A stretch of 10,288 bases of DNA, from NCBI GenBank assembly GCA_043803945.1, contig JAZDJN010000001.1, forward strand, positions 1 to 10,288, read 5' to 3'. This document shows, in pieces, positions 1 to 4,311 of the stretch. Source of the DNA: a bacterium. GTDB lineage: Bacteria; Bacteroidota; Ignavibacteria; UBA10030. Under the pieces are notes generated by a model. That model was not told the origin of the DNA. It was given only the letters and a program-made list of their open reading frames with translations, and did no database searches. Position 1 is the stretch's first letter; each line of letters opens with the position of its first letter. The position numbers were made by a program, and so were the translations under genes.

Positions 1-120
<120 letters not shown>

Positions 121-331: not shown

Positions 332-500
332 GAAGAATTTTATTATTTGATTGTTTTCATAAGAATCTGAACATCTATCACATTTAAATCTTGGTGTTTT
401 GGCGTTCTTGGCTGCAAATCTTTCTCTTTTTCTGATCTTACTCAGTTCCATGCGTAACATAACTAATTCACAGTGCTGAAGTAGCTCAGTGGTAGAGCAG

Positions 501-614
501 TCCCGCAAGCCTGATGCTGCGGTAGCTCAATGGTTGAGCAGTGGTTTCGTAAACCACAGGTTGCCGGTTCAAGTCCGGCCCGCAGCTCAAATAAATCAGA
601 ATCGGCTGGCGGGA
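501..614. mobile_element. 114-nt insert bounded by imperfect inverted repeats and carrying tRNA-Thr(CGT)
   Basis: Left end TCCCGCAAGCCTGAT (501-515) versus the reverse complement of the right end (601-614), TCCCGCCAGCCGAT: one mismatch and one indel. The boundaries coincide with the breaks in the outer tRNA. Mobility is inferred. Confidence 0.55.
516..587 (+). tRNA. tRNA-Thr(CGT), CCA not encoded
   Basis: Complete cloverleaf: acceptor GCTGCGG/CCGCAGC; D-arm GCTC-AATGGTT-GAGC; anticodon stem GTGGT/ACCAC with loop TTCGTAA (CGT at 548-550); T-arm GCCGG-TTCAAGT-CCGGC; discriminator T587. Confidence 0.93.
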
Positions 615-635
615 TAAACCGCCGGTCCTGGGTTC

Positions 636-689: not shown

Positions 690-837
690 AACTCCCACCT
701 TCGGCTCTATCTTTTACTATTTCATTGATATCCAGGGAATACTCATTATTGTAATATTCGCATGAGTGTTCAAGTAGATGTGAAAGCTATTTTTTCCCTC
801 CCCAGTTTCCCAGAGAAATATCAGTGGTAAGTCATTT

Positions 838-3363
838 ATGAAACTCAACTTTCAATCCCTTCTTCTGATTGCGTACCTTACTTTTGGAACACTTATCGCT
901 CAGGATCGCAAAGGCCAGATCACCGGCCAGGTCATCGATGCGCGGACACAGGAGCCTCTGCCCGGCGTCAATGTTGTCCTGGTCGAAAAAACCAGGATTG
1001 GTGCTGTCACTGATATTCAGGGGAATTTCTCGCTGAAAGAAATTGAAGTGGGGGAATATGCCCTTCGTTTTTCTATCATCGGATATGAATCTGTCATCGT
1101 GACCAACGTTGTAGTCTCTACAGGGCGCAGTGCAAAGGTCAGTATAAAAATGCAAGAGACCACACTCCAGATGGAGGGACAGGAAGTCCGGGCAGATTAT
1201 TTTCAGCGTGCCGGTTCCATGAGCCCGATCAGCACAACCGGACTGGATGCAGCCGAAATACGCCGCTCACCAGGTTCTGTCCAGGATATTCAGCGGATCG
1301 TTCAGAATCTTCCTGGTGTCGGCAACTCAACGGATCAGACAAATGAACTTATCGTCCGCGGCGGTGCACCAAACGAAAACCTGACCGTAATGGACTATCT
1401 CGAAATCCCCTCCACCAACCATTATCCGAATCAATTCAACTCCGGCGGACCGATTAACATGATTAATGCAGATCTCATTCAGGATATTCAGTTTTCAACT
1501 GGTGGGTACCCAGCGAACTATGGAGATAAACTCTCTTCCGTTATGAATGTTGCAGTTCGGGAAGGCGATCGCGATCGACGGATAGCCTCGAACACCAGCA
1601 TGCACTTTGCTGGTGTTGGTGCAGTGCTCGAAGGTGGCATCGCATCAGGCCGAGGTTCATGGATCATTTCAGCGCGACAGAGTTTTCTTGAGGTGTTGGA
1701 TAAACTCGTCGGAGTCAGTTCTCTTGGACTGACCGCAGTCCCCAAGTATTGGGATGCACAGTGGAAGGTGGTCTACGATCTTTCGCCTCAGCATAAATTG
1801 TTGTTCAACGGGCTTCTTGGTGATGACCGGATCCTCATGGTTGGATCTGAGAAAGAACATAATGCAGCAAAGGCCGGCGTACGAGATTCGGTCAATGTGA
1901 ACGATATTGATTTTCACAGCTCACAATACGCTGTTGGAATAACACTGAAAAGCATTCTCGGAACCGTCGGCTATTCCGCTCTCACTCTCTATAGCTGGGG
2001 AAATTTCTGGGATATGGGGATGCGATCTAAATTCTCCTCGCGATCATATGATGCTGAGGGAAACCTTGGATCTGTTCAAACAATTTCAGACCGGACCAGT
2101 TTCTACGAGTATTCCCAGGAACGCTATCTCGGATTGAAATATGAAGCGGTCTATGGAATCACGAAAGCACATAATCTTGCCTTCGGAGCCCAATATCAGA
2201 CTGTGGCTCTGTTTAAAAATGATGTTAAGATCGATCGTGATACTGTTCGTTACAATCTCGATGGGCTCCCGGGATTTGAAATCCCAATGGTCGTGGTGCC
2301 TCCCTGGAATCTTTCCAAATCCATTAGCTTTGCGCGTGACTATAAGCTTGATGCTTATGTAAGCAATACCTGGCAAGTCAGTCCAGTAGTTATAGTCACT
2401 GGAGGGCTTCGCTATGATTATTTCAGTTACTCACGGTGTGCGACATTGAGTCCGCGCTTGAATTGTTCTTATCATCTTTACCCGCCGACCACAAAGTTAA
2501 CAGCCGCTTACGGAGAGTATTATCAAATTCAATCGTTTCCTACATACGGAGATCCACAGGATCTCGAATTTAATCGCTACCTGAAAAACAGTCATGCCCG
2601 GCACCTGGTCTTCGGGATCGAACATATTCTTGCCGAAGGGTTGAAGTTGAGTTTGGAAGGATACCAAAAATCCTACTCCGATCTTCCTGTGCGGCAGGCC
2701 TATATCTATTCCGCGGATCGAACTTTTCGCTCCGATACTGTCCTGAATCTTGGTATTCGTTCGGCGTATGGGATTGAATTCTTCATGCAGCAAAAACAAG
2801 TCACAAACACATACTTTACGCTCAGTTACTCCTGGTCTAAAACTCGGGATAAGGATCCACGAACACCGAAACTTGTTGAGGAGTACCCCTCGGCCTATGA
2901 CTATCCGCACATCTTTACCTTTGTCATCGGTCATCGGGTGAAAGATTTCCGAACCACACTGAACAATCTGCCATTCTACATTAAATATCCATCGTCTATC
3001 CTCCCATTTTCGGATGATATGGAAATCAGTTTGCGCTTCCGATTCCAAAGCGGAAATGTCTATACCCCAAGGGTCTATGTGACTGACGAACAGCACCGCG
3101 TCGGTGGGCGAGCCTGGACTCCGGGATGGTGGAAAGATGGAGTTGCGACAAATTCTGCACGCTACCCCGACTATCACCGGCTCGATATTCAGTGGATAAG
3201 CCGGTACCATCTGGCAGCGTATAATATTGAGGTTGTCTTTGCCATTCAAAACGTTTACAATCGGGCGAATATTTCCATGATGAATTATCGGAGTGATGGA
3301 ACCATTGAGAACGTTTATCAGTTTTCATTTTTCCCGGTGGCTGGTCTCAATGTTGAATTTTAA
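838..3363 (+). CDS. TonB-dependent outer-membrane receptor with N-terminal carboxypeptidase-regulatory-like domain
   Basis: 841-aa ORF with a signal peptide. GQITGQVIDARTQEPLPGVNV is typical of the CarboxypepD_reg-like domain. Plug motifs DIQRIVQNLPGV, LIVRGGAPNEN and GGYPANYGDKLSSV; barrel motifs GLRYDYF and LSPRL; C-terminal Phe (GLNVEF). Substrate unknown. Confidence 0.93.
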   Translation: MKLNFQSLLLIAYLTFGTLIAQDRKGQITGQVIDARTQEPLPGVNVVLVEKTRIGAVTDIQGNFSLKEIEVGEYALRFSIIGYESVIVTNVVVSTGRSAKVSIKMQETTLQMEGQEVRADYFQRAGSMSPISTTGLDAAEIRRSPGSVQDIQRIVQNLPGVGNSTDQTNELIVRGGAPNENLTVMDYLEIPSTNHYPNQFNSGGPINMINADLIQDIQFSTGGYPANYGDKLSSVMNVAVREGDRDRRIASNTSMHFAGVGAVLEGGIASGRGSWIISARQSFLEVLDKLVGVSSLGLTAVPKYWDAQWKVVYDLSPQHKLLFNGLLGDDRILMVGSEKEHNAAKAGVRDSVNVNDIDFHSSQYAVGITLKSILGTVGYSALTLYSWGNFWDMGMRSKFSSRSYDAEGNLGSVQTISDRTSFYEYSQERYLGLKYEAVYGITKAHNLAFGAQYQTVALFKNDVKIDRDTVRYNLDGLPGFEIPMVVVPPWNLSKSISFARDYKLDAYVSNTWQVSPVVIVTGGLRYDYFSYSRCATLSPRLNCSYHLYPPTTKLTAAYGEYYQIQSFPTYGDPQDLEFNRYLKNSHARHLVFGIEHILAEGLKLSLEGYQKSYSDLPVRQAYIYSADRTFRSDTVLNLGIRSAYGIEFFMQQKQVTNTYFTLSYSWSKTRDKDPRTPKLVEEYPSAYDYPHIFTFVIGHRVKDFRTTLNNLPFYIKYPSSILPFSDDMEISLRFRFQSGNVYTPRVYVTDEQHRVGGRAWTPGWWKDGVATNSARYPDYHRLDIQWISRYHLAAYNIEVVFAIQNVYNRANISMMNYRSDGTIENVYQFSFFPVAGLNVEF

Positions 3364-3785: not shown

Positions 3786-4311
3786 ATGCAACCATCCCTT
3801 TTTGATCTTATCATTGTCGGAGCGGGCCCCTCAGGCCTCGCTTGCGCTATTGAAGCTAAAAAAGCAGGCCTTTCCTGTCTGGTGCTCGATCAGGGTTCCG
3901 TGGTCGACGCAATCCGTAGATTCCCTTTCAATATGACGTTCTTTTCTACCGCTGGGCAACTAGAGGTTGGCAATATTCCTTTCCTCTGTAAAAGAAATCC
4001 ACCCGCACTCAATTATTATCGAGGGCGTGGAAGAGCGTGAATTGTTGAACGATGCCCTCTTCCCAATGATCGGCTACCAGCCGGATCATTCATTATTGGC
4101 AGGTCTCCATGTAGAGATCGACCCCGAGACGTTGATACCAGCTCACGACTCAAAGACAATGGAGACGAATGTGCCAGGATGTTTTCTTGCAGGTTCTATT
4201 GCGGCTGGCAAGTTTAACAATAAAATATTTATTGAGAACGGCAGGCTTCATGAAAAAGAGATCGTGAACCGAATACGTTCTCGATCGCAATCTCCCTCGT
4301 CATTGCATTGA
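3786..4311 (+). pseudogene. ypdA: YpdA-family (putative bacillithiol disulfide reductase, thioredoxin-reductase-like flavoprotein) pseudogene with internal deletion and frameshift
   Basis: First frame: FAD-binding DLIIVGAGPSGLACAIEAKKAG and FPFNMTFFST...LEVGNIPF. Second frame: IGYQPD, TMETNVPGCFLAG and FIENGRLH, the YpdA C-terminus. The two parts total only about 175 codons, and no central NADPH-binding domain is visible. Confidence 0.85.

Follow-up and report, generated by a model that had tools for sequence, protein, structure and literature searches.

The locus described here probably represents a tRNA gene replaced from within, in which a hairpin-bounded cassette split an older tRNA-Thr(CGU) gene; we put the probability of this reading at about 0.6. 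It lies in a window of 10,288 bp, which is one complete contig of a 5.54-Mb draft genome in 118 contigs. We propose that a 114-nt unit (501-614) broke a GAAG-type outer gene (475-500 + 615-706) apart within its anticodon arm, and that this unit consists of a complete tRNA-Thr(CGU) of another allele placed in the loop of a GC-rich hairpin, TCCCGC...GCGGGA. A promoter upstream of the outer 5′ half would then drive transcription of the inner gene, and a repeated double hairpin would have entered the T-loop of the dead gene later. The family of such nests may spread between tRNA-Thr genes by homologous recombination, by Y1-mediated exchange of hairpins, or by both.

Two tRNA-Thr genes in one locus

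ARAGORN reported a single tRNA in the window, tRNA-Thr(cgt) at 516-588. Positions 516-587 scored 70.6 bits against the Rfam tRNA model, whose gathering score is 29, placing the sequence among the cloverleaf tRNAs. Rfam searches of 430-780 at the gathering score and at E <= 10 returned no family but the inner tRNA; twister-type matches of 12.7-16.5 bits, far under threshold and positioned on the tRNA itself, were set aside. The genome's 47 tRNAs include no second tRNA-Thr(CGU); as a candidate from its sequence, this gene is presumably the working one. Since no other tRNA-Thr(CGU) is available, it would compensate for the gene that it interrupts, as the first-pass annotation had suggested. Its D-loop reads AATGGTT, which bears out the earlier remark that position 21 is T instead of A.

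Features of the tRNA-Thr(CGU) nest, with positions in the window
Feature	Positions	Strand	Basis
Outer dead tRNA-Thr(CGU), 5′ half: acceptor 5′ strand GCTGAAG (475-481), D arm, to position 27	475-500	+	Identity to functional alleles
Left arm of inverted repeat, TCCCGCAAGCCTGAT	501-515	+	Sequence and repeat search
Inner tRNA-Thr(CGU), GCGG-type allele	516-587	+	ARAGORN, Rfam, sole Thr-CGT of 47 tRNAs
Spacer, inner tRNA to right arm	588-600	+	Read from sequence
Right arm of inverted repeat, ATCGGCTGGCGGGA	601-614	+	Sequence and repeat search
Outer 3′ part a: anticodon-loop end (TAA), anticodon stem 3′ strand, variable loop, T-stem 5′ strand, TTC	615-635	+	
Repeated double-hairpin insert of 54 nt in outer T-loop	636-689	+	Genome repeat family
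Outer 3′ part b: rest of T-loop AACT, T-stem 3′ strand CCCAC, acceptor 3′ strand, discriminator	690-706	+	

Remains of a second tRNA gene were found on both sides of the unit. Positions 474-501 repeat the beginning of the inner tRNA in direct orientation (86%), and 475-500 are identical at 26/26 positions to the first 26 nt of functional GAAG-type tRNA-Thr(CGU) alleles (G008 and L032). Behind the right arm the outer sequence resumes with TAAACCGC, in which the anticodon loop ends and the 3′ strand of its stem follows. Compared with functional genes of relatives, exactly 8 nt (CGGTTTCG, positions 28-35) are absent between GAGCAG and TAAACCGC, in line with the previous estimate that the insert replaces about 8 nt of the outer anticodon arm. 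These 8 nt include two anticodon bases, 34-35, and because the unit removed them we consider the old outer gene dead. The first-pass annotation had been right that an outer tRNA is disrupted; it had overlooked that this gene runs on to 706 and that its T-loop carries an insert. The outer gene continues over its variable loop and T-stem 5′ strand to GGGTTC (635), where the 54-nt interruption begins, and the acceptor 3′ strand CTTCGGC is found at 699-705, with the discriminator T at 706. CTTCGGC and GCTGAAG form six Watson-Crick pairs and one G-U pair, and are paired with each other in the predicted fold of 476-708 (-101.4 kcal/mol, z -4.9).

The two arms of the inverted repeat, 501-511 and 604-614, are complementary at 10/11 positions, and one bulge extends the pairing to 515/601. 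Both arms bracket the tRNA as previously described, and the left arm ends at 515, immediately 5′ of tRNA position 1 at 516. The tRNA is the sole cargo of the 114-nt unit. By our own rough estimate, made without a tool, about 0.07 inverted repeats of this quality are expected by chance within 136 nt, and the repeat by itself is thus only suggestive. We consider it real because it sits exactly at both junctions and because perfect equivalents of 11-14 bp exist in relatives (G008, G034, L130 and L183). No target-site duplication was found at the window junctions, where the flanks are GAGCAG and TAAACC, in agreement with what had been noted before. The flank upstream of the outer 5′ half was also compared with the left arm as a possible trace of tandem duplication, and showed no similarity to it.

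Two elements of the earlier interpretation stood in part. The repeats had been expected to form a stem, and the arms are indeed complementary, but in the RNA fold of 476-708 the right arm pairs with 621-628 in preference to the left arm. In an alternative register, ATCA of the spacer (595-598) could pair with TGAT (512-515). The unit had also been called a tRNA-carrying cassette; its cargo is a tRNA and nothing else, but it is present in one copy in the genome and no copy was seen outside half-tRNA flanks among the loci read. The imperfect arms of the window, the pairing of the right arm elsewhere in the RNA fold and the constancy of the junction (see below) were counted against the cassette reading.

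The insert in the outer T-loop belongs to a repeat family of the genome. It contains a hairpin, TGAGCC/GGCTCA (636-641/669-674), enclosing a nested one, TCCGCC/GGCGGA (648-653/662-667), and is completed by a second hairpin, TCCACC/GGTGGA (675-680/684-689). Elsewhere in the genome, 631-689 is matched strongly at 11 places, and an nhmmer profile built from six copies of the insert detected 28 places at E <= 0.001. The module follows GGTTC in 3′-part copies of tRNA-Met, Val(CAC), Ala(CGC), Asn, Gly(CCC), Leu(UAA) and Arg(ACG), each of these copies lying directly downstream of its own intact tRNA. A copy of the gene's own 3′ part was found behind 9-10 of the 47 tRNAs. For tRNA-Met the copies make up an array of at least four units, 99 nt each, which runs on into another contig; tRNA-Asn shows a clean tandem duplication of 3′ part and terminator; and tRNA-Arg(UCG) and Arg(UCU) have an additional 5′ fragment upstream. 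The double hairpin also occurs, without the nested part, in T-loops of relatives and at three Patescibacteria loci.

Nests in related and distant genomes

Comparison of the tRNA-Thr loci of 19 relatives (18 tRNA-Thr(CGU) and one tRNA-Thr(UGU), L016), all of them, like every genome used for comparison, draft or metagenome assemblies, revealed three arrangements. In six, a 5′ half precedes a repeat arm and an inner tRNA (G005, G008, G013, G017, G027 and G034), in another six a tRNA has a copy of a 3′ part behind it, and seven have a plain gene. The atpD gene was present inside the 1.5-kb flank at 19/49 loci, including the nests of G005, G008, G013 and G027, and the nest locus is orthologous among relatives. 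The oxidoreductase gene found 3′ of the tRNA in relatives is left in the window as a fragment, 3967-4311.

We then consider the order, Ignavibacteriales, as a whole. The pattern TCCCG-N8-30-GCTGNNGTAGCTCA, ending in the tRNA-Thr start, was detected in 47 of 277 genomes, at 54 places, while the reversed control pattern gave 10. Thirty loci of the order were read, and in 20 of them a TCCCG arm lies directly behind a tRNA 5′ fragment; eight are no nests and two are ambiguous or of another type. The junction GAGCAG/TCCCG...CGGGA/TAA, including the loss of 8 nt, is near-constant at tRNA-Thr(CGU) and tRNA-Thr(UGU) loci, the UGU nests with this junction being found in other genera. Three loci depart from the common pattern: L153 has a CGU gene within a UGU-type outer gene, L144 has an empty hairpin at the same junction, and G013 has a clean insertion between anticodon positions 35 and 36. 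Multi-layer 'onions', with two or three layers of 3′ parts, were found in G034, L041 and L088. The outer 5′ and 3′ strands mismatch each other in G008 and L183, the 5′ half and arm are duplicated in L070, and L062 and L036 show plain tandem duplications of the 5′ part. At L130 the few bases behind the inner gene are similar to those behind the outer 3′ end. Related nests were present in contigs of public groundwater runs as well. In four DNA runs, the contigs that could be aligned with the window were fragments from distant relatives, none of them covering the whole stretch, and no RNA record was listed for 380-800; neither outcome has a bearing on expression.

Some of these loci were counted against the cassette reading. 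The flank resemblance at L130 hints at local duplication in that lineage, and L070 illustrates how unequal crossing-over can add layers without a new invasion.

The inner and outer genes of the window proved to be different alleles. The outer pieces are identical to the L032 allele at 62/65 positions, made up of 26/26 in the 5′ half and 36/39 in the 3′ part, the latter counted by hand from the printed strings (615-635 + 690-707 against the L032 3′ part). The inner gene is identical to this GAAG-type allele at 59/73 positions, with compensated changes in the acceptor, anticodon and T stems, and to the inner gene of G005 at 70/73. About 14 changes in a working gene against 3 in a dead copy would be implausible for a local duplicate, so that the inner gene is instead a later arrival of a foreign allele. 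The closest relatives by AtpD identity carry GGTG or GGCG alleles, those at the top (G007, 89.8%; G012, 88.9%; G005, 87.5%) having GGTG alleles as plain or outer genes. Because of this the GCGG-type inner allele is not the ancestral resident; that it might be so was an objection that the first-pass annotation had raised against its own proposal.

The same allele types recur in different positions. The GAAG-type is inner in G008 and G027 and outer in the window, L130 and L041; the GCGG-type is inner in the window, G005 and the metagenome locus L183 and outer in G034; the GGTG-type is inner in G013, G017 and G034 and outer in G005. The cassette closest to that of the window is in L183, with arms TCCCGCAAACC/GGTTTGCGGGA, a similar GCGG-type inner gene and the same anticodon stem. 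Its outer context combines a GAAG-type 3′ part, free of the T-loop insert, with a 5′ half of GGCG-type, and L183 is for this reason regarded as a recombinant.

Finally, we searched a single genome of each species for pairs of tRNA 5′ motifs spaced by 28-58 nt, a pattern confined to tRNAs with GTAGCTCANNGGT, to that spacing and to one orientation. The scan gave 112 loci, some of them simple tandem repeats, and a tRNA was called just behind the 5′ fragment at 89. A complete outer T stem (5/5 pairs) and acceptor 3′ strand (7/7) were present within 330 nt at 35 of these 89, compared with 104/1780 in the shuffled-strand control, and at 28 of the 35 the inner and outer genes have different acceptors. 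Most of the nests recovered belong to Patescibacteria; several records labelled 'uncultured Gammaproteobacteria' give the impression, from their tRNAs and neighbours, of being Patescibacteria-like too. The tRNAs concerned are Phe(GAA), Ile(UAU), Ile(GAU), Met, Thr(UGU), Asn, Lys and others, and the nest build extends over two distant bacterial groups and at least eight anticodons. Arm ends across phyla read TCCCG...CGGGA, CCCCG...CGGGG followed by CARG, or CCTGCCCGCC...GGCGGGCAGG.

In Patescibacteria many outer genes have perfect, covarying acceptor and T stems and are intact around clean inserts at 31/32, 35/36 or 38/39. With introns allowed, ARAGORN modelled L037, L051, L060, L095, L097 and L108 as intron-bearing tRNAs whose anticodon equals that of the inner gene. 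In L051 most of the anticodon loop is retained to either side of the insert, and this is the only locus with a partial duplication of the loop. The checks proposed by the first-pass annotation came out in its favour: repeat pairs enclosing a tRNA recur widely in the order and beyond, the repeat type is not unique to the window, and cargo and host share the same anticodon wherever the outer anticodon loop survives.

Possible routes and competing explanations

The motif TCCCG...CGGGA gave 108 regex matches in the genome; in about 60 the loop does not exceed 25 nt, where by our own estimate some 7 were expected. The cassette arms are built like this frequent class of short hairpins, a kinship that had been missed when the arms were first, and correctly, placed. 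The genome has 12 matches to Y1_Tnp (PF01797). One Y1 gene, on contig C18, combines an HUH-like NHYHF motif with TCCCGAAAT hairpins to its left and right; these hairpins share with the cassette arms only the TCCCG...CGGGA core. Hairpin density at the 12 Y1 genes is uneven, from 0 to 2.5 per kb, compared with 0.83 per kb in the first 30 contigs, and does not by itself tie the cassette to a transposase.

Two routes could account for the spread of the unit. In many nests the outer 5′ fragment ends in or just after the D-stem 3′ strand (GGTAG, GGTAGA, GGTAGAG, GAGCG or GAGCAG), with the GC-rich arm next. A single-stranded tRNA gene would present GTAG and then the anticodon hairpin, and because GTAG plus a palindrome is the build of a GTAG-tagged REP, a REP transposase could swap this hairpin. 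The enzyme would take the GTAG of the D arm together with the anticodon hairpin for a REP, and the anticodon hairpin would be exchanged for a REPIN-like doublet with a tRNA in its spacer. Cleavage would then be expected next to GTAGAGCAG in the tRNA-Thr gene, the stretch from GTAG through the anticodon hairpin. Alternatively, the conserved half-tRNA flanks of an existing nest may act as homology arms that carry the unit into similar tRNA-Thr genes. Recombination of this kind fits the constant junction, the hybrids G008 and L183, and the duplicated 5′ half and arm in L070. The constant junction, with its loss of 8 nt, suits a single origin followed by homologous recombination no less well than transposition, and suits it better than a series of independent transpositions. 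In no close strain did we find this allele with the site still empty, which counts against the cassette reading since no insertion event is thereby captured, and the present data fit both routes.

A link with CRISPR was considered and left unexplained. The hairpin and the bases following it (...GCGGGATAAACCG) resemble the end of the CRISPR repeat in reverse complement (...CGGGGATGAACCG), and the genome has a type I-E-like repeat, Cas6e and an array of 10 repeats. Against this link, the resemblance could not be connected with an inverted-repeat nest, and TAAACCG is native tRNA sequence in Thr genes.

Could the nest have arisen in situ only, by partial tandem duplication and unequal crossing-over of the resident tRNA-Thr, with hairpins invading later? 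The genome offers material for such an account in the 9-10 of 47 tRNAs with a copy of their own 3′ part, the tandem duplication at tRNA-Asn and the tRNA-Met array of at least four units, as do the tandem 5′ parts of L062 and L036 and the duplicated 5′ half and arm of L070. We nonetheless regard it as unlikely: the inner and outer genes differ at about 14/73 positions while the outer gene is 62/65 identical to a working allele elsewhere, inner and outer alleles swap among genera, and what separates the 5′ half from the inner gene is no copy of the flank upstream of that half. Moreover, the flanks of the inner gene are mutually complementary, which is no product of tandem duplication. Integration into anticodon loops is known, as are fragments of tRNAs located next to complete genes. 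The locus might thus be what is left of an anticodon-loop integrase element that carried its own tRNA-Thr and was deleted down to that tRNA, a history for which L051, with most of the anticodon loop retained around its insert, and Caldiarchaeum, with its tRNA-Thr fragment beside another allele (PMC3293823), could serve as parallels. Yet the gap between the halves is a tRNA with short flanks in every nest read, no integrase or other gene was found between outer halves among these nests, the arms are directly complementary and of the genome-wide hairpin type, L144 has an empty hairpin at the same junction, and the anticodon loop is not duplicated in Thr nests, all of which makes a remnant of this sort quite improbable.

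The outer gene might also still serve a purpose, its halves scaffolding the inner tRNA in a composite RNA, or the insert acting as an intron that lets two tRNAs mature from one transcript. The fold predicted for 476-708, in which the outer acceptor strands pair and the inner cloverleaf forms, would agree with this, as would the presence of RtcB in the genome and the Patescibacteria outer genes with covarying stems that ARAGORN models as intron-bearing tRNAs. In the window, 8 nt including anticodon bases 34-35 are gone and 54 extra nt interrupt the T-loop; the outer strands mismatch in G008 and L183, and 7/19 relatives manage with a plain gene. Nor was a tRNA splicing endonuclease domain found, PF01974 having no match in the genome, whose completeness by marker genes is 100%. 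With exon bases lost, the T-loop broken up and the endonuclease domain lacking, we judge a composite RNA very improbable in the window. The intron version of it was ruled out there by the missing exon bases and the absent endonuclease domain. The nest might, lastly, be a chimera in which the assembly fused tRNA alleles of several strains. The window is indeed short, one of 118 contigs in a draft, and strains have sequence words of their tRNA genes in common, but a misjoin cannot yield two complementary flanks, and nests occur in many independent assemblies, including the chromosome-titled L060 and contigs of 0.5-1.8 Mb, and in the contigs of public groundwater runs. An assembly artefact is hardly credible in these circumstances.

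Replacement of the tRNA-Thr(CGU) gene from within by a hairpin-bounded cassette remains our preferred reading of the window. A far broader reading is tentative, and we doubt that it holds in all its parts together: hairpin-bounded tRNA genes would be a distinct, cross-phylum class of selfish, self-compensating elements that home into the anticodon arm of their own isoacceptor. Such elements would kill the target and take over its job, serial replacement would leave onion-like fossils, and the clean inserts of Patescibacteria might act as tRNA-containing introns. If true, these introns would imply a bacterial tRNA splicing route not yet known.

Meaning and relation to known systems

tRNA genes are thought to be very stable, changed mainly by point mutation, by duplication and by large islands at their 3′ ends. 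At this locus a tRNA gene that is essential and present once would have been exchanged for a foreign allele by way of a 114-nt insert that carries the replacement. If mobile, the unit would be a minimal parasite, indispensable from the moment of its insertion, and its mobility would explain how acceptor-stem alleles of an isoacceptor move between lineages. There is also a practical side, since gene finders report the inner gene only and, with their intron options, miscall the outer gene. Small hairpin repeats in tRNA loops (D, anticodon and T) moreover provide a testable idea of how REP-type transposases choose their targets. A full-text literature search, with subscription journals outside its coverage, retrieved no description of a bacterial tRNA gene nested in a cognate tRNA gene. 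The nest combines known kinds, namely hairpin-bounded miniature elements and tRNA-targeting elements that restore their target, and hairpin-bounded tRNA nests may be a class of their own.

Group I introns in the anticodon loops of bacterial tRNAs and protein-spliced introns of archaeal tRNAs can spread between tRNA genes, and like them the unit is an insert in the anticodon arm of a tRNA gene. It differs from both: at 114 nt it is too short for a group I intron, a family absent from the 9 Rfam matches up to E = 10 in 430-780, and positions 28-35 are absent from the exons, so that protein-mediated splicing could not restore the outer tRNA. MITEs are short elements bounded by inverted repeats and without a transposase of their own. 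The unit shares with them its shortness, its terminal inverted repeats and the lack of a transposase. Unlike them it has no target-site duplication, 8 nt of the target being lost instead, is present in a single copy in the genome, and is strictly tied to cognate tRNA genes.

Integrative elements that target tRNA genes resemble the nest in their target, often the anticodon loop, and in the old fragments left beside a working gene, of which repeated events at one locus can leave several. Tandem repeats of the ssrA end are reportedly found in Dehalococcoides. These elements are kilobases long, encode a recombinase and usually restore only part of the tRNA, whereas the window unit spans 114 nt, brings a complete gene and has both old halves remaining around it. 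No recombinase gene or remains of one were found in 501-614 or in the other nests read, and the window junctions have no direct repeat of a crossover region. In Caldiarchaeum, an element that bears a recombinase separates one tRNA-Thr allele from the 5′ fragment of another, which lies 1.8 kb further upstream (PMC3293823), and the recently split tRNAs of archaea are a related case of tRNA-targeting elements (PMC3218864).

REPINs and REP elements are moved by RAYT (Y1) transposases, whose genes are flanked by the repeats (PMC3116915, PMC3733652). Compared with them, the window unit holds an essential gene in its spacer and lies inside a gene of the same kind instead of in extragenic DNA. The cassette occurs once in the genome and not as many dispersed copies, the hairpin class alone being frequent, and the window arms have in common with the hairpins flanking the transposase gene only the TCCCG core. 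The likeness nevertheless extends to a small, non-coding build in REPIN style, with two inverted arms around a spacer that would form a hairpin in single-stranded DNA. It extends as well to abundant, non-autonomous elements in a genome with Y1 transposases (12 matches), and to the Y1 gene on C18, which has hairpins on both sides in the arrangement of REP-associated transposases. As in REP elements, GTAG stands just upstream of the arm, and in the window it is the D arm that supplies this GTAG.

Flanks of the nested tRNA locus

The 3' end of a group II intron (domains V-VI) lies within the first 120 nt of the contig, and the contig break probably falls inside a repeated intron. Between this intron end and the nest (a complete tRNA-Thr(CGU) between inverted-repeat arms, inside a split outer tRNA-Thr), window positions 440-462 (to 477) have copies with 100% identity on three other contigs of the source genome, G000, and a copy with 87% identity on a fourth. 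This stretch seems to be the beginning of an ORF family on the minus strand, with CCCGCC...GGCGGGCAGG hairpins in front of it. What originally lay upstream of the tRNA locus seems to have been replaced. In relatives, tRNA-Thr is immediately followed by a pyridine-nucleotide oxidoreductase gene and then by atpD. In the window, a TonB-dependent receptor gene separates the tRNA locus from a C-terminal fragment of the oxidoreductase gene.

Features in the window and in G000 (C numbers, contigs of G000)
Feature	Location	Remark
Group II intron 3' end (domains V-VI)	window 41-120	Rfam 54.2 bits; gathering score 40
TonB-dependent receptor gene	window 838-3363	between tRNA locus and oxidoreductase fragment
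Pyridine-nucleotide oxidoreductase, C-terminal fragment	window 3967-4311	
tRNA-Met array	C102:55613-56084	
Resumed tRNA-Met array	C60:19200-19786	
tRNAs with own 3'-part copy downstream	Asn C29:8182; Gly C95:32987; Leu C98:39131; Arg C27:1500, C27:52495; Val C91:69256; Ala C65:42541; Asp C109:3132	
tRNA-Arg(tct) call	C112:16163-16247	ARAGORN
Y1 (IS200/RAYT-like) transposase gene	C18:82701-83700	NHYHF motif; hairpins both sides
Type I-E-like CRISPR array and Cas6e homologue	C87:189179-189760 and 193038-193715	

Partial tRNA copies elsewhere in G000

Behind a tRNA-Met gene we detected at least four tandem units of 99 nt, each a copy of the 3' part of tRNA-Met with a double hairpin in its T-loop. 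The array reaches the end of its contig and resumes on a second one. That contig also carries a full-length but degenerate copy of tRNA-Met, whose T-loop holds the insert seen in the array units. Eight further tRNAs (Asn, Gly, Leu, two Arg, Val, Ala and Asp) are followed, 75-330 nt behind the parent gene, by a copy of their own 3' part that has an inserted hairpin within or close to its T-loop; for tRNA-Asn, the 3' part and terminator are cleanly duplicated.

The tRNA-Arg(tct) call has a Ser-like body, with acceptor strands GGAGAGG...CCTCTCC and a long variable arm, and closely resembles the tRNA-Ser genes of G000. The gene may encode a Ser tRNA whose anticodon reads AGA; alternatively, it may be a pseudogene.

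Other tRNA builds at scan loci

Six Patescibacteria loci recovered by pattern scans (L046, L054, L055, L061, L065 and L072) carry two inserts in an outer tRNA-Phe, both placed exactly at stem-loop borders, with the anticodon loop CTGAAAA (TTGAAAA in L065) retained between them. The insert between positions 31 and 32 is a hairpin with the inner tRNA; that between 38 and 39 is a second hairpin, beginning TTTTACCCC at four of these loci. Every locus has an intact outer acceptor stem, and all but L061, with one mismatch, have an intact outer T stem; both stems covary between genomes.

A different build recurs at L036, L063, L077, L100, L107, L109, L110, L127 and L132. Here a tRNA start of ~21 nt precedes a sequence resembling GGTAAGC-AAGCTTGCC, which folds back onto the D-arm region; after a short spacer comes the complete tRNA, identical in sequence. 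The arrangement may represent a leader structure or an insert of some other type.

Transposase hairpins and a CRISPR repeat

Three copies of a hairpin with a 14-bp stem, GTGTAGATTCCCGAAATC...GATTTCGGGAATCTA, flank the Y1 transposase gene: two lie on the same side, the third on the opposite side. The CRISPR array comprises 10 repeats with a 61-nt period, and the Cas6e homologue scores 141.9 bits. Read in reverse complement, the CRISPR repeat terminates in a CCCCG...CGGGG hairpin with ATGAACCG after it, an end that closely resembles the ...GCGGGA plus TAAACCG of the nest.
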